From NCBI GenBank assembly GCA_021432655.1, contig MU271250.1, forward strand, positions 62,001-122,723: a stretch of DNA of 60,723 bases, written 5' to 3'. The stretch is from Atractiella rhizophila. Lineage: Eukaryota. The notes below the pieces were generated by a model that saw only the letters and a program-made list of their open reading frames with translations, was not told where the DNA came from and made no database searches. A program made the translations under genes and the position numbers. Of the stretch, positions 54,426 to 60,723 are shown piece by piece (position 1 is the first letter of the stretch; each line of letters starts with the position of its first letter).

Positions 54426-55800
54426 ATGACACCAGAGTTGGGCCTGGCAATTTTTGATGCCATCGATGACGCCAGCTCCATTCTCATTGCAATAGGGAAG
54501 AAGGTCAAAGAAATGCACCAGTTTCAACCCAAGTGCAAGATTCTCCAGCAAGGCGCCCAGCAACTGCTGGCGGTCTGTGAAAGAACAAAGATGCATTGGT
54601 GGATCTTGCTATGGTTATTGAAGTCAAGGAATGCCTTCAGAAGATTGACACTTTCGTTGAATCCTGTGCGAAGTGGTACATACTAGATGTTGGCTTGGAG
54701 GTTGTAATCCACCACCGATTCCCAGCATTGAGAGGGAAGACCAAGAGGCTCATTGATCACTTTACCTTCGAACTGGTCCTCCCTAATTCCTTGCATAATG
54801 CTGGTTGCAAATCAGTTTGCCAACTGTATCGTAGGTCGAGACATTCGCTCGCCAAAGGGCGGGATTCGCCAATGTCCTAGCTCGCGTTCCAGAACCGGGA
54901 CTTGAAGAGAGAGTCTCTTTGCAAGCTCAAGCCGTCGTGCGGAAATACATTGAGGAAGAACATCAGAGACAGACTGGCAAGATCGGATCCATCCCACCAG
55001 CGACATCCAACATCAAACCATATTTCGAGGAAAGCGATCCCCAACTCAACATCACTTTCGGTGAGCAGACGAGAAATTCCCCTTTGACATGTTGACGGCA
55101 GTCATGCTGAAAGACGCGGCCGCAGAGGACATACGGGTATAAATACGCAATGGTGGGAACCCTGGAGCTCTGTCGGGCAGCAGTGCATCTGAACTTGCCC
55201 TCAACCGCGTCATCACAAAGTGCTGGTGCCTGCGAGCCGATATCCGACCATCAGCTAAGGACTTGACTAGAGACCTTCAGACTTTGTACCTGCAGAGTTC
55301 CTTCGAGACTTTGCGTGCACCAACAGATGCTGCAAAACAAGTAGAAGCCGACAATGTTCGAGTGCAGCTGGCGGCACGAATCAAGCAAGCAAGGGATCTG
55401 AACCCTCCTGGCACGGGAAAACCTGTTTCCATCCCTACCAGTCTCCTCGTCCCAAAGGATAACTTTCTGAAATTTCTGGAACTTGACGAACGGGATTCGG
55501 TAAGGTCTTACATCATTGGGGCTCTTGTTTTCTGCGGTCTTGTCGATCAGGAGAAGGATGTGTTGGGCATTACACTGGACATGGACCTTGTGATAGCGGA
55601 TCCAAAAGGCAAGAAAGCCCTTCCCGGCTTTTAGAGGGTTAGGTCATACTGATGATCAGTCTAGAAGCTCAATATACCTTCGCCCTCAAGCACCTACTTC
55701 CAGCTGTGGAAAGCGGATACAAAGAGGCATACCATGAGACCTGGAGGGCACAAGCGGCTCTTTCGAGGCTGTACAAGCAGAGATATGAGAGATTCGCAAT
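54426..55800 (+). pseudogene. Degenerate N-terminal helical bundle + protein kinase C-lobe + SEL1/TPR-like gene
   Basis: N-terminal AIFDAIDDASSILIAIGKKVKEM..KCKILQQ; kinase-like KFPFD..VITKCW..IRPSAKDL; C-terminal AQYTFALKHLLPAVESGYKEA; several stops and frameshifts. Confidence 0.5.
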
Positions 55801-56199: not shown

Positions 56200-57671
56200 T
56201 ACTACCTTTTTATTCCCAGTCTTTGAACTCACCATCTCCAACTCTCTCCTCCACTAACGAACGCCGCCAAAATGGCCATAAGGACCTCAACGATATCTGA
56301 GATCTGGTCGGCATAATAGATGTGCGAAGCTAAGGAAGAAATGGCGCTCTTGATGTGCCCAGCGAATTCGAGAGAGCTCGAAGGGGCAAACACGCGACTG
56401 GCTTGCGTGTGACGTCAACTATTCCGATAGCAGGAACGGCAGTGTCCCCTGCCAGGATGGTTGTGATCATTGTCAGGATGGGGGACCTAAATTCTTCTGT
56501 CCTATCCTTTTTTCGGACTTGCTCCGGCATCTTTTCTTTTGAATCCCTATGCTCAAATAGAGAAAGCCATTCTATCAGAACCTTCAGCGCCTGGGCTTTG
56601 TACGGCAAAGAGACTGTGTTGATGATTCCTGTGGCGAGCCACCGAGAGAATTCACTGGCGGCTGCATTAGATAGGTTCGCGAAAGACGCTTTGCTCCATC
56701 GCAGGATCGCGCCAGTGGTGAGAGAAACGAGGTTACGTCCATGTGAGAGATGAAGGAACGATCTGAGAATATTCACGGTTTCTCGCATCACTCAGATGTC
56801 ATCTGCAGCAACAGACTTTTCAGTCGTTCGAGAAGATGTAAAGACTTTGCTATTTTTGTTTTCAGGCACAATGCTAGGTAAATTCCAGTTTGTATAGACC
56901 GCTTGCCAATAGCCGCTGGGGAAGTGAGATCTGAGACATCTTGCGGGAGGGCTGATTGAGCAGAGGTGGATGCTAACTGGCATGGCGGAATAGTTACAAG
57001 GCTGTAAAGCACAGTGGTGAGACGAGGTTAATCTTCTCGCGGCATTGCGGTTCAGCGTATGTGGTCTGACTGAGAGTTGCCCCTTGTAAGACTTGCAAAG
57101 CTGACAACTTCGACCTGTGCACATCGAATCAGCTTGGGGATGACAACAGAACTGACAACATACCTAAAACCGGTGGAAGGTGCAGAGAGCAAATGGGCAA
57201 AGCGTCCGAAACAGGACTTGTAGTTTGCTCCGGTAGACTCAAGGAGGAGGAGGAGAGGTGACCCAGGATGAGAACACAAGAGAACTTTAAAATCAAATGA
57301 GGCCATTGTTCAAACATCGCAAGCAAAGACGTACAAGATTGGCTGCTCTGGCGACTATCTCGTCATCTTTGGAAAATGCGCTCTTCATGAGAGTGTCCAC
57401 AATCTCCAGCACCTCAGTCTCCCAATAAAAAAGCCCAACTCCGACTTCGTGAACCAAGCTTCTGCAAATGTCCAATGTCACTGCAACCGCGTTCCTTTTT
57501 GCTCTGTTTACAGCCTTTCCATTCTTCTCCACTAGGGCTTTTCCAACCTTTGCTATTTTGTTGGGCCGCTGCGTTGTGTAGAAAATGAGTTTGGAAAGAG
57601 CATTGGAGTCTGAGGGATTGTTGGGCGGAGGGATTGTTGGGCTGTTGATAAGTTTGAAGGTGGGACAGCAT
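56200..57671 (-). pseudogene. EFR3: EFR3 N-terminal fragment, frameshifted and 3'-truncated
   Basis: NALSKLIFYTTQRPNKIAKVGKAL..VTLDICRSLV and SSLASHIYYADQISD are Efr3-like signatures; frameshifts and a ~16-bp tandem duplication near the start. Confidence 0.8.
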
Positions 57672-57976
57672 GCGGAGAGCAGCAGCCTGTGGTTGTGAAT
57701 CTGCTTTATGAATTAAGAAAAGAATAAGGAATAAAGCGAGAGAGTGAGGAATCTGAAGCAGGGATCGGCTTGGTGGCTGAAAAGTAGTCAGATTGCGTAC
57801 GCACGTGAAGGAGAAGGTATGTCAGATGCAGATGGGAAGGGAAGGCTGAGACGAGATATGAATTGTGCATAGAATTATTTGACATTGCTCATGAAAGTGA
57901 CAGCACATGCAGCACACTGATGACCAAAGTGAGACTAAAAAATCCCGAATGGTACGAGAGAAAGATGAAGAAACAT

Positions 57977-59410
57977 CTACAAATCCTTAGGCAAAGAAAA
58001 ATAGCTCGAAAAGGTAGAATCATCCTTGAGGTGTGTAGACACGACATTGTAGATATGCAGGAGCAGCAGTGGAAATCTTCGACTAAAATATGCAAGGTAA
58101 CCATCCGGGAGCTCACCGAGACTTTTTCGTACATTATCGGGCAAATCTTGAAAATGATATTTCTGCCATGACACATATTATCAGCTCGAGCATAATCATA
58201 CAGAAAATGACAAACTTTGTTGCGGAAGACTCGTAGAAGATCCCGTACGGAAGTGCTATCGTATTTCCTATATTTTCCTAGGTTTTCGATCAATGATGGA
58301 TCAAGGGCTTTGTACCAATCGAGTCCAATGATTTCCTTTGAACGACTCTCGAGAGCAACGAGTATTGGATCTGGCAATTCGCGATCCATAGGCTCGAAAA
58401 TATCGCTGGCATCGGAAATAAAGAGCAGGCGTCGAGATGCCGGCCAGAAGAGAGGATGCAGAAGAACAGAATCTGCGTTTGGTCTGTGTCTGTCGATTAG
58501 CAATTAAAGACAAAAAGAGGCGAATCGAACCGTTTGCGAGCTTCCCCGTCCAACATTTGTAGGATGATGTCCTTTGCTTCCTCCTCTCCAAAAAGTTTAT
58601 CCATCGTCACTTTCTCATGAAGAATATTCATTTCCCTCTCATACTTCGGACCGTATGGATGTTCGCCGCCCGTTAAAACATAGTAGAAAATGCACCCCAA
58701 TGAAAAAATATCGATGCTCGTCGTTAGTCTTCGAACAGAAATTTCGTTTCCTCCAGCGCTCCCGGACAATCCTACTGTAGAGTCTCTTGTTGAGCTCAGC
58801 AGCTCATCATTCATGTTAACATCTCCACGTAATACCTCCGGTGCGCGATATCCATAACTGCCCGCAGCGTGATTGGCAGTCTGAAGGAAAGAGGACTCGT
58901 CGATATCCAGTTTCTTGCATAATCCGAAATCAGATATAAGCATTCTGATTCCACCTCCACTCTTTTTCTGTCTCGACACAAGGATATTCTGTGGCTTGAT
59001 ATCTCGATGGATAATCTTGAGCTTGTGCAGATGGCGCAGCCCCTCCGAAATCTGACGCAGAGCTTTTTCGTGGTTCGAAGAGGGTGGTTAGCTCCGGATG
59101 AGACGCAGGTTGCTCAACGATTTCGGCAAGTGATGCAGGACAAAGCTCAAGAGCAATGTAAAGAAAAGTGTCTCGCTGCTCTTTGCAGAAATATCGGATG
59201 ACGTGAGGGTGATCGTCGCTCTCCTCGAGCACCTTGACCTCGTGCTGAGCGATTGTGACAAAATCTCTCGGCAATCGCTTGACTGCGACGTCTCGCCCTT
59301 GGAATTTCCCTTTCAACACCACAGTGCCATGACTACCCCAACCCAAGATCTGTTCTCCTACGATCAAAGAGCCTATGCGACTTCCGTTCCCCCCCTCTTC
59401 GTCCTTGAAG
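57977..59410 (-). pseudogene. IRE1: IRE1 cytosolic kinase + KEN RNase portion (no luminal or TM domain); +1 frameshift at A-run ~59065
   Basis: ILGWGSHGTVV..GRDVAVKR, ESDDHPHVIRYFC, LYIALELC, HRDIKPQN, ISDFGLCKKL, RAPE, HPLFW, KYRKY..VRDLLRVFRNK/KYHFQDLP. Confidence 0.93.
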
Positions 59411-60568
59411 CCCAGCTCCAACTTGTTGACATCTTGTAATGCGGCTTTCTCAGCCGCTGTCGTCTCGTTCTCTGATGCGGCTGCGCGGCGCTCCGCCTCC
59501 TCTCTCTCGTTCCCCTCATCCTCCGTACCCTTCTTCTTCAACGCCTTCGCTCCCTCAGGCAGCCAACCATCCACCTCCCTCAGGTTCAAGCTGGGTAAAC
59601 CCAAAGCGTTGGCGGTAGCGGAAGCGGAAGCGCCGTTGGGCAGGAGAGTGTTGATACCATGAAGCTTGGTGGCGTTGAAGATGAGGTTATTGCAGTCCTG
59701 AATCTCATCCGCGAACGCAGCGAAAGCGGCCGCCTCTTTCCCCTGGGCATGCAGCTCCTTCTTCTTCTGATCCTCAAACTGTGCCTTCTCAGCTTTCTGC
59801 TTCTCCATCCGCTGATTCCAATCCTCTTGCATCTTTTGCAAATACTTTTCATTCGCGGATCTGAAGTTGGCTACACTCTCCTTTTTCTTGGTGTACAGAT
59901 TGTCAATCTGCTTCTGTAAAGCATTTCTCTCCTCGAATAACGCGTCTTTCTCTATCTGTTTGGTTTCCGAACGCTTCAAGATCTCGTCCAATTCCGCATG
60001 GAGAGACTGCATCTTGTCCCACGAAGACTTGATGGCGGGATCATTAAGGGAGGCTTTCAGAGCATCGATCTCTTTCTTCGTAGCGTCGATCTGCTCTTGT
60101 TGCGTTGCAAACCCTTCGACAACCTTTCGGGAGCGCATGTGGGAAGATATTTCAGTGAGGGTCCACTCTTCCTCAACAGGCTTCACAGTTGCAGATTCGA
60201 TCCTCTTTTCCAGCGATCTTATACCCGTCATAAATCCCCAACACAGTCAGGACAGGTGAGGGAAAACACACTTGATTTGATTATCCACCTCCAGCGTGGT
60301 CTTGAATGGCACCTTGCTCCTAGCAGCAGTAAGATCTAATATCTGTGCCAGGCTATCGTCAGCCGCGACCTCAAAGACTGAGTGATCTACCTGCCCTCTT
60401 GCGGTTGATCTCTAGCAGGTTCTTGATCTGATCCAGAATTTTCTTCCTGCCACCCTTGTTAGCTGCTTGGTCTCCCCTGACGGCGTCCAGCTCAGAGCGC
60501 AGCTGAGCCCATCGTTCTGCGTCGACGTTCTTGCCACAAGAAGAATCGATTTGGACACGAATCTCATT
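59411..60568 (-). pseudogene. BFR1: BFR1 (nuclear segregation / ER mRNP protein) fragment, 5'-truncated by the telomere and fused in frame to IRE1
   Basis: LRSELDAVRGDQAANKGGRKKILDQIK / DLTAARSKVPFKT..VDNQIK / SLEKRIES..EISSHMRSRKVVEGF..QID..LFEERNALQ..AFADEIQDCNNLI..LKKKG; two introns retained; junction position approximate. Confidence 0.8.
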
Positions 60569-60628
60569 CTATAAGAAAGAAGAGTTAGCATGCGGTTACA
60601 AACTGCCATTCGCTGAAAAGACCTGGAT

Positions 60629-60723
60629 TTAGGGTTAGGGTTAGGGTTAGGGTTAGGGTTAGGGTTAGGGTTAGGGTTAGGGTTAGGGTTAGGGTTAGGG
60701 TTAGGGTTAGGGTTAGGGTTAGG
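60629..60723 (+). repeat. Telomeric repeat (TTAGGG)n, ~16 units, chromosome right end
   Basis: Perfect TTAGGG array with the G-rich strand running to the end of the window. Confidence 0.99.

Follow-up and report, generated by a model that had tools for sequence, protein, structure and literature searches.

The stretch of DNA analysed here (the window, 60,723 nucleotides from Atractiella rhizophila) ends in telomere repeats, and on the minus strand just inside them lies a chimera in which a copy of an internal part of BFR1 (native residues 77-394, introns retained) is fused in frame to a copy of IRE1 that starts in the cytosolic linker, takes in the kinase and the KEN RNase and ends in a stop at 57977. 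A frame of 438 codons (58930-60246) passes without a stop from the Bfr1-like coiled coil into the N-lobe of the IRE1 kinase, much as the original prediction for this DNA had described. If the four introns are removed and one base is skipped at 59064, the read-through remains open for 793 codons and ends in the TAG at 57977-57979. The features are collected in Table 1.

Table 1. Features of the chimera and of the surrounding tract, from the telomere inward (positions in the window)
Feature	Position	Strand	Evidence
Telomere repeat (TTAGGG) x15.8, reaching the window end	60629..60723	+	Period 6, 100% matches; CCCTAA on minus strand
Last 60 bases of BFR1 intron (CTAAC branch site, ...TATAG acceptor), abutting the telomere; end-healing site	60569..60628	-	Sequence; X3 contig
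BFR1-copy exon (NEIRVQ...NRKRA), native residues 77-135	60391..60568	-	tblastn of P0002 residues 77-134 onto 60568-60395; gene model
BFR1 intron, kept	60336..60390	-	Gene model P0001; X3 joint 60337/60395
BFR1-copy exon (DLTAARSK...NQIK)	60272..60335	-	Gene model, contigs, read-through
BFR1 intron, kept, 54 nt, GT..AG	60218..60271	-	X3 joint 60217->60272 skips 54
BFR1-copy exon to ...ALKKKGTEDEG (native residue 393/394)	59512..60217	-	Alignment to P0002; X3 record 22
BFR1::IRE1 joint, in frame, shared sequence at most 1 nt	59511..59512	-	Contigs of runs X1, X2, X3
IRE1 cytosolic linker and kinase N-lobe (GWGSHGT, VAVKRL)	59065..59511	-	Profile, homolog alignment, tblastn
Run of five A, one A surplus (frameshift)	59064..59068	-	Contig depth, runs X1, X2, X3
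IRE1 kinase C-lobe (HRDIKPQN, DFG, APE)	58531..59063	-	Pkinase 2e-27; yeast Ire1 1.8e-41
IRE1 intron, 47 nt, GT..AG	58484..58530	-	X5 joint 58483->58531
Kinase end and first KEN/RNase exon, to ...RNK	58216..58483	-	Collinear with 2rio_A residues 288-377; Ribonuc_2-5A
IRE1 intron, 53 nt, GT..AG	58163..58215	-	X5 joint 58162->58216
Last KEN exon (KYHFQDLP...) and TAG stop	57977..58162	-	Aligned to 2rio_A residues 379-429; read-through
EFR3 N-terminal fragment, same duplicated tract	57293..57712	-	PF21072 4.4e-6
Inner boundary of tract with other copies in the same DNA runs	56281..56281	.	X1, X2 contigs

Composition of the telomere-proximal tract

The BFR1 piece is identical at 270 of 318 positions (85%) to P0002, a 535-residue paralog from the same species, with which it is collinear apart from a single gap of one amino acid. 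In the public annotation a partial gene, P0001, is called on this part, and the paralog of that gene model shows 86% identity. No Pfam model exists for the Bfr1 family; P0002 matches proteins named Bfr1 or “multicopy suppressor of BFA” in a collinear alignment that covers 98% of its length (best E value 2.4e-116), as well as Atlas Bfr1 clusters (0.97-0.98), which upholds the predicted Bfr1-like nature of the N-terminal part of the chimera. The accompanying suggestion that BFR1 had been internally deleted is not supported, as the piece follows native residues 77-394 with no more than the one-residue gap; it is instead truncated at both ends. The copy resembles Bfr1 (a nuclear segregation protein or multicopy suppressor of brefeldin A) closely over residues 77-394, but it lacks the first 76 and the last 141 residues of the native protein and is changed at positions that are invariant in the family.

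Upstream of the first BFR1 exon, 60 bases of a BFR1 intron remain before the telomere repeats begin, and the promoter, the start codon and residues 1-76 are therefore missing from the window copy. The loss of the promoter and first exon had been foreseen, and the cut can now be placed inside the intron: an RNA contig of run X3 departs from the window at 60569 and continues into the upstream native exon (..EIERLQNKS of P0002). An in-frame TAG stands directly upstream of the first BFR1 exon, and the first in-frame methionine of the read-through is at about residue 108.

The IRE1 part is matched by the domain profiles Pkinase (2e-27) and Ribonuc_2-5A (PF06479, 7.6e-21), and in a comparison with the PDB its best solved relatives are structures of yeast Ire1 (1.8e-41), with other kinases at about 1e-11 to 1e-13. 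The motifs VAVKRL, HRDIKPQN, DFG, APE and RNKKYHF are all found in the read-through, and the KEN part is collinear with residues 288-429 of 2rio_A, in which the second His of the yeast HH pair is aligned with the His of RNKKYHF. It had been stated from the letters of the sequence that the kinase and KEN motifs were complete, that a His occupied the expected catalytic position, and that one extra A was the only clear lesion of the IRE1 part; all three statements agree with these results, and the two further apparent frame changes are introns, which spliced contigs skip exactly.

Homologs of IRE1 align to the window from about 60 residues ahead of the kinase, and tblastn of three IRE1s (two full-length, P0132, P0121) matches the window from the linker on and finds no luminal sensor or membrane span upstream of it; their place is occupied by BFR1 sequence. 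Set beside canonical fungal IRE1, which consists of an ER-luminal sensor, a membrane span, a linker, a kinase and a KEN RNase, and beside the yeast Ire1 structures, the window copy is collinear through linker, kinase and KEN, with intact motifs and with both introns spliced in related RNA contigs, but it has no luminal domain, membrane span or signal peptide, and its frame is broken at 59064.

Past the IRE1 copy, on its downstream side, the tract runs on into an N-terminal fragment of EFR3, whose profile match (positions 16-114 of 545) scores 26.2 bits, slightly below the 27-bit cut-off; from this fragment toward 56281 Pfam finds no more of EFR3, and the Atlas leads for 56330-56791 are generic HEAT/ARM-like ones. 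In both DNA runs, X1 and X2, there is a contig that matches the window from 56281 on and has 255 unlike bases before that point, while X1 record 2 and X2 record 9 cross 56281 as the window does. No copies of the tract were found elsewhere within the window by blastn or tblastn. From 56281 to the telomere, diverged copies occur elsewhere in the same DNA runs, in which paralog contigs have about 91-98% identity to the window tract: in X1 some places are covered both by an exact and by a diverged contig (records 3 and 4, or 6 and 7, among others), and in X2 record 12 another copy runs into GTTAGG repeats at about 58299, within the KEN domain. The region adjoins the telomere and has diverged copies, and is a subtelomeric duplicated tract.

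Frameshift and relaxed constraint

The surplus A, which had been predicted in the homopolymer near 59065, breaks the kinase frame ahead of the catalytic loop and of the entire RNase. Paralog contigs omit the base at 59064, and they account for 281.9 of 394.1 depth in X1, 313.5 of 313.5 in X2 and 8.02 of 8.02 in X3; the remaining X1 depth belongs to DNA contigs that are exact copies of the window, and these retain the extra base. The spliced RNA contigs are of the unshifted type.

The window copy and native Bfr1 differ at 46 amino acids, of which 28 are derived in the window, 9 are derived in the native protein and 9 are uninformative (binomial p=0.0026), so that derived changes in the BFR1 part are about three times those of the native gene. 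Two of the window-derived changes, L94P and K98E, fall at positions invariant in 13 of 13 outgroups. The BFR1 part thus shows relaxed constraint.

In the IRE1 part, 4 of the 140 columns that are at least 95% conserved among 120 fungal IRE1s have changed, and at three of these the window residue occurs in 0 of the 120. R671I and L397P lie at positions that are invariant or nearly so in the 120 IRE1s, the former within the SDR motif, which is otherwise 98% conserved. Four such deviations are inside the range of real IRE1s, at least 4 being carried by 8 of 115 homologs. The listed differences from the paralogs in the kinase and KEN coding sequence (58258-59329) comprise 6 synonymous and 4 non-synonymous changes, which alone do not demonstrate neutrality; the 24 that were classified among 40 listed differences (336 in total) comprise 10 non-synonymous, 11 synonymous and 3 non-coding changes, too small a sample, in which several paralogs are mixed. 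The CpG observed/expected ratio is 1.09 for the IRE1 part and 0.79 for BFR1, with 0.76-0.84 over the remainder of the window, which gives no clear signal of a repeat-induced or CpG-decay signature.

One observation runs against the view that the copy is dead, namely that the 793-codon read-through is stop-free apart from the extra A and retains all kinase and RNase motifs; the partial gene called in the public annotation also counts against it. In a rough neutral simulation the BFR1 part, with 47 changes, stays free of stops with a probability of about 0.17, and the IRE1 part, with 20 changes, with one of about 0.5; for both jointly it is about 0.08, a value that is unremarkable yet not comfortable for the reading as a dead copy.

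The copy carries a disabling lesion and shows relaxed constraint in comparison with an intact paralog, and it is a pseudogene in this sense, of the unprocessed kind because its introns are retained. With the promoter, the start and the first 76 BFR1 codons missing, and with an extra A before the catalytic loop, no Ire1 enzyme would be made from it. The locus is very probably a chimeric pseudogene without function, one element of a patchwork of gene fragments that lies at the end of a basidiomycete chromosome. The original prediction had itself preferred a rearrangement product, and the telomere cut, the frameshift and the relaxed constraint bear this preference out; the chimera is most likely dead.

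The joint in the sequencing data

The matches of the two parents to the window break at an identical base, 59512. On one side, the paralog IRE1 contig (X1 record 7) agrees with the window over 59216-59512, and its next 1219 bases upstream are unlike the window and would represent the native linker, membrane and luminal part; on the other, a native-type BFR1 RNA contig (X3 record 22) matches 59512-59715 and then has 18 letters encoding SWGGLG, the same as in native P0002. The joint had been placed at about 59410, some 100 bases from its actual position at 59512/59511, and what lies between the two points is the cytosolic linker of IRE1 itself. Among the matches listed (120 at 240-767 aa and 120 at 768-2190 aa) no full-length IRE1 comes from this species; identities to IRE1 are highest, at 58-80%, for proteins of other fungi, and it is therefore the contigs that point to an intact native IRE1.

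Sequence support across the junction, which the prediction had been made to depend on, is provided by exact contigs from both DNA runs: X1 record 6 bridges the joint over 59216-59557 (342 bases) and X2 record 14 over 59216-59706 (491 bases), each with 0 differences. The chimera is real, and that its joint is in frame is a one-in-three accident.

The depth of these contigs leaves some room for the view that a genuine rearrangement is carried by only some of the nuclei or some of the culture (for example, in one haplotype of a dikaryon or as a recent somatic event), rather than fixed in the species. Contigs specific to the chimera have about 0.56x the depth of the single-copy flank in X1 (105.5 vs 187) and about 0.08x in X2 (10.4 vs 125.7), both runs being labelled as one sample, and the runs also differ at 55487 (T in X1, 187/187; C in X2). 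Contig word depth is, however, a poor measure of copy number, and the copy is several percent diverged from its paralogs and has accumulated 28 derived amino-acid changes, so that the fusion is not recent. Partial presence is therefore somewhat unlikely; it is compatible with the explanation as a chimeric pseudogene, which it would refine.

Depth below that of the flank, together with the existence of several similar copies of the tract and the position of the joint at a contig end, where assembly is weakest, might also be taken to mean that the BFR1 and IRE1 loci were stitched together artificially. This is highly improbable, since the exact contigs that cross the joint were built separately from two runs, and since both breakpoints coincide and the parents share at most one base there, which leaves no repeat on which a k-mer graph could mis-join. 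The assembly was probably built from these very DNA runs, and for that reason the bridging contigs do not constitute independent proof of the joint.

Expression and origin of the chimera

The spliced contigs of the RNA runs X3 and X5 carry the paralog (native-type) sequence, and those of X3 end at 59504 on the IRE1 side and continue as native BFR1 from 59512 on the BFR1 side. No RNA contig among the pieces listed bridges the joint, which answers in part the question of junction-spanning transcripts raised by the original prediction, contigs being unable to show that a transcript is absent or a locus silent. The chimera is probably not expressed.

It had been proposed that the fusion, if expressed, might act as a soluble, stress-independent Ire1 RNase on mRNPs, an idea that finds no support, as a start and promoter are lacking, the kinase frame is broken and no bridging RNA contig was seen. 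More broadly, a cryptic telomere-proximal promoter could drive transcription of the chimera, or of a sister copy that lacks the extra A; translation from an internal methionine would then yield a soluble coiled-coil-Ire1 kinase-RNase able to oligomerise in the absence of ER stress. The in-frame joint, the intact catalytic motifs and the absence of stops other than the frameshift speak for such a protein, and the several copies of the tract could differ from one another. Against this, neither promoter nor start is present and the first in-frame methionine comes late; the frameshift is in the exact copy, and the listed contigs that bridge the joint are all of this exact, frameshifted type; and the BFR1 part shows relaxed constraint while R671I and L397P affect (near-)invariant IRE1 positions. 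An expressed chimera is accordingly very unlikely. Slightly less probable again is the specific case of a sister copy, at another chromosome end or in another haplotype, that is free of the extra A and whose transcription from the telomere inward gives a constitutively oligomeric soluble Ire1. If this were true, its coiled-coil-driven Ire1 would cut RNA independently of ER stress, a subtelomere-born fungal rewiring of the RNase L kind.

RNase L, a soluble vertebrate protein, carries ankyrin repeats in place of a luminal domain before its kinase-like domain and KEN RNase. The chimera, if made, would similarly place a cytosolic oligomerisation or ligand module ahead of kinase and KEN, but RNase L is a selected, expressed gene whereas the window copy is truncated and frameshifted, and the N-terminal module of the latter is a coiled coil without homology to the ankyrin one. 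None of the 397 proteins compared matches both the BFR1 and the IRE1 halves. P0269 (942 aa), the top match on the IRE1 side, aligns in two stretches and was considered as a Bfr1 fusion, and it was rejected as a tandem-kinase IRE1-like protein.

The explanation as a non-functional pseudogene includes a copying step at the DNA level, since two BFR1 and two IRE1 introns are in place where the spliced contigs skip. Retroposition or template switching on mRNAs, for which no supporting point was found, can be set aside as scarcely credible, given that all four introns of the copied parts and the tail of a fifth are retained and that the tract runs on through an intergenic region into EFR3. A genomic rather than cDNA copy of the IRE1 locus, from the linker through the kinase and the RNase to the start of the neighbouring EFR3, was, on this explanation, joined end to end, essentially without homology, to a genomic copy of an internal BFR1 piece, and the broken end was then capped by new telomere repeats inside the BFR1 intron. 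The repair may have proceeded by end joining or by template switching during break-induced replication, followed by telomere healing.

Chromosome ends of yeast, other fungi and human carry subtelomeric patchworks made up of duplicated gene fragments and chimeric pseudogenes. The window tract resembles these patchworks in that it adjoins a telomere, consists of pieces of unrelated genes (BFR1, IRE1 and EFR3) joined without homology, recurs in the same genome as diverged copies, one of which has its telomere at a different point, and is truncated, frameshifted and decaying; it differs in the particular gene pair, in the joint that keeps the frame and in the near-intactness of the IRE1 part. The portions of the literature available to us contained no account of this locus or of IRE1 pseudogenes at the chromosome ends of fungi, and none of how the genome was sequenced.

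The locus provides a clean, base-resolved case of chromosome ends building new gene architectures: DNA copies of three unrelated genes were put together without homology and capped with a telomere, and at one joint, which happens to keep the frame, a signalling enzyme has had its sensor module exchanged. Relics of this kind supply raw material for domain shuffling, but the chimera in the window bears no sign of use. Where several chromosome ends carry IRE1-like fragments, both the counting of copies and the assembly of the real IRE1 locus may be confused, and the partial gene model at this locus should carry a pseudogene flag.

Parentage and structure of the chimeric reading frame

Four minus-strand pieces were obtained by reading stop-to-stop from the telomere inward (see table), and their coiled-coil parts had no Pfam match. 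A homolog search with the 438-aa frame gave the partial gene model P0001 (313 aa) at 100% identity and a paralog, P0002 (535 aa), at 86% identity, both listed under Atractiella rhizophila as hypothetical proteins. To judge by its relatives, P0002 is a Bfr1 family member: it has 30 protein matches at E<=0.001, among them a Rhodotorula toruloides protein named 'multicopy suppressor of BFA' (45% identity at 98% coverage, E 2.4e-116) and several whose UniRef name is 'Nuclear segregation protein Bfr1', and Bfr1 clusters adjoin it in the Atlas at 0.97-0.98, which is a lead only. The N-terminal part of the chimera, which the original prediction had called Bfr1-like, is collinear with residues 77-394 of this native protein, with 270/318 residues identical and a single 1-aa gap. 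By similarity to solved structures, the identity of the IRE1 half is unambiguous, the closest relatives being yeast Ire1 (2rio, 1.8e-41) and then human IRE1 (~1e-29), with kinases other than IRE1 at 1e-11 to 1e-13; both KEN exons are collinear with the yeast Ire1 chain 2rio_A (residues 288-377 and 379-429).

Features of the window's telomeric end
Feature	Position	Strand	Length	Remarks
Frame 1	60371-60568	-	65 aa	
Frame 2	58930-60246	-	438 aa	Pkinase N-lobe, 6e-07, below cut-off (Pfam)
Frame 3	58497-59087	-	196 aa	Pkinase, 2e-27 (Pfam)
Frame 4	57889-58503	-	204 aa	Ribonuc_2-5A, 7.6e-21 (Pfam)
IRE1 intron	58484-58530	-	47 nt	spliced contig joint
IRE1 intron	58163-58215	-	53 nt	spliced contig joint
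BFR1 intron	60218-60271	-	54 nt	spliced contig joint
BFR1 intron	about 60336-60390	-	about 55 nt	spliced contig joint
EFR3 N-terminal fragment	57293-57712	-		PF21072, 4.4e-6, just below cut-off
Telomere repeats	60629-60723			(TTAGGG)15.8, window's end

The contigs of runs X3 and X5 are spliced and therefore represent RNA of this organism or of a very close one. The four introns that they define are all GT..AG on the minus strand and are consistent with P0001, and because the spliced contigs skip the IRE1 introns, two of the three apparent IRE1 frame breaks are introns. When the four introns and one base of the A-run are removed by script, 793 codons are open up to the TAG at 57977, residues 1-316 being Bfr1-like and 317-793 IRE1.

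Run exhaustively over 1.84 billion representatives, HMMER produced 2037 matches at E<=0.001, the best 150 of which are each Bfr1-like or IRE1-like; the sole match suspected of being a Bfr1-IRE1 fusion was rejected as a tandem-kinase IRE1. Among 397 retrieved proteins, the Bfr1 part has 54 matches and the IRE1 part 341, with no protein matching both, and the literature listings searched showed nothing relevant.

The joint between BFR1 and IRE1

The window's Bfr1 part terminates in ...ALKKKGTEDEG, which in the native protein is followed by SWGGLG. In an RNA contig (X3 record 22) the match covers 59512-59715 and gives way to 18 letters that code exactly for SWGGLG; X1 record 7, a 1516-nt DNA contig of the paralog, differs from the window at 26 places over 59216-59512 and carries 1219 unlike bases upstream of that match. 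Since both stop matching at 59512, the two parents share one breakpoint base, and the roughly 100 bases at 59411-59511 that had been taken as Bfr1 are instead IRE1's own linker. With no more than 1 nt of overlap between the parents at the joint, the joining presumably took place without homology. The predicted chimera itself is confirmed by exact contigs, which span the joint with 0 differences in each DNA run, over 342 nt in X1 record 6 and 491 nt in X2 record 14. Both runs may belong to the data from which the assembly was made, but even so a k-mer graph would have no shared repeat at the joint through which to connect the wrong sequences.

Decay of the chimeric copy

The chimeric copy is most likely dead. 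Its first BFR1 exon starts at 60568, with an in-frame TAG just upstream, and is separated from the telomere by 60 bases that contain a TATAG acceptor and a CTAAC branch site. An X3 RNA contig departs from the window at 60569 and runs on into the upstream native BFR1 exon; this departure, taken with the branch site and acceptor, places the telomere addition inside a BFR1 intron, with promoter, start and the first 76 residues lost. The extra A noticed in the homopolymer was followed into the contigs, where the base at 59064 is missing from paralog contigs (281.9/394.1 of the depth in X1, 313.5/313.5 in X2 and 8.02/8.02 in X3) and is kept by the remaining X1 depth of ~112, close to the depth of the contig that bridges the joint (105.5). 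Because the extra base tracks the depth of the exact copy, the frameshift, which is present in contigs assembled separately from the assembly, is a property of the window copy and not of the native gene.

Substitutions were also evaluated. When 46 Bfr1 differences were polarised with 13 outgroups, 28 proved window-derived, 9 native-derived and 9 uninformative (p=0.0026); among the window-derived ones are L94P and K98E, both at invariant positions, as well as three changes of R to W. The IRE1 part deviates at 4 of the 140 columns that are >=95% conserved in 120 fungal IRE1s (L397P, R605K, R671I and P679L), three times with a residue found in 0/120, a mild count, since 8/115 real IRE1s show a deviation of that size. 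Transitions are abundant among the changes that set the window apart from the contigs, and the window more often has A/T where the contigs have G/C (in X1, A>G 57 and T>C 52 vs G>A 36 and C>T 30); this bias, in a count that mixes several paralogs, fits a possible GC-to-AT decay of the window copy.

Against decay stand the otherwise open read-through and the intact kinase and RNase motifs. In a rough simulation, the odds of staying free of stops are ~0.17 over the 47 changes of the Bfr1 part and ~0.5 over the 20 of the IRE1 part, and the kinase/KEN coding differences listed comprise 6 synonymous and 4 not, with 24/336 differences classified. Neither the odds nor the counts demonstrate selection, and both are compatible with past constraint or with gene conversion from the native gene. 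The speculative reading of the original prediction, a functional Ire1 RNase, is unsupported, and its cautious one, a rearrangement product, was right, given the telomere-truncated BFR1 copy, the frameshift and the decay. The locus is a chimeric pseudogene, unprocessed and set within a subtelomeric patchwork, and a fresh example of a known phenomenon.

The subtelomeric tract and its proposed origin

The window ends in telomere repeats and therefore extends to the chromosome end. In both X1 and X2 a contig match begins at 56281 after a stretch of unlike sequence, and this point marks the inner edge of a duplicated tract. From there to the telomere, exact and diverged contigs coexist within the same run at several places; inward there is a single contig type, with ordinary genes (Phe-tRNA synthetase beta, NmrA-like, COX17 and GNAT). 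The EFR3 fragment adjoins the IRE1 piece downstream of its stop, so IRE1 was copied along with a neighbour gene. A diverged copy of the IRE1 3' end (X2 record 12; 57861-58299, 22 differences, 9 gap positions) runs into GTTAGG repeats directly after ~58299 and therefore represents a second chromosome end, where a still shorter piece of IRE1 was capped within the KEN domain. Neither a luminal domain nor a further copy of BFR1 or IRE1 lies in the window. The contigs reveal an IRE1 paralog that lacks the frameshift and has sequence upstream; the matches listed (240-2190 aa) include no annotated IRE1 named for Atractiella rhizophila, and owing to these copies the native gene may lack an annotation or have been assembled poorly.

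The patchwork could have begun with a break at a chromosome end whose repair copied or captured parts of the IRE1-EFR3 and BFR1 loci, through end joining or through template switching in break-induced replication, routes that are proposed because the homology at the joint is 0-1 nt. New telomere repeats would then have healed the end, and the tract may later have spread or eroded among chromosome ends. The introns still in place rule out retroposition.

X1 and X2, labelled as one sample, disagree at 55487 (T in 187/187 in X1, C in X2), and the depth of the chimera-specific contigs (59216-60094) is ~0.56x the flank in X1 and ~0.05-0.08x in X2; heterozygosity, mixed nuclei or library bias are possible causes. 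Both runs also hold a contig that matches just a 223-base BFR1 stretch, 60144-60366, with unlike sequence beyond either loose end, which may be an additional BFR1 fragment or a more diverged copy. The EFR3 fragment, whose frame has no Met, may reach down to 56281, and a frame at 56330-56791 (-) has a HEAT/ARM-like resemblance only. In the EFR3 region small indels set the paralog contigs apart from the window at 57250, 57264, 57328 and 57612, the last a 12-base length difference between copies that coincides with 1.9 repeats of the 16-base unit GAGGGATTGTTGGGCG at 57612-57642.
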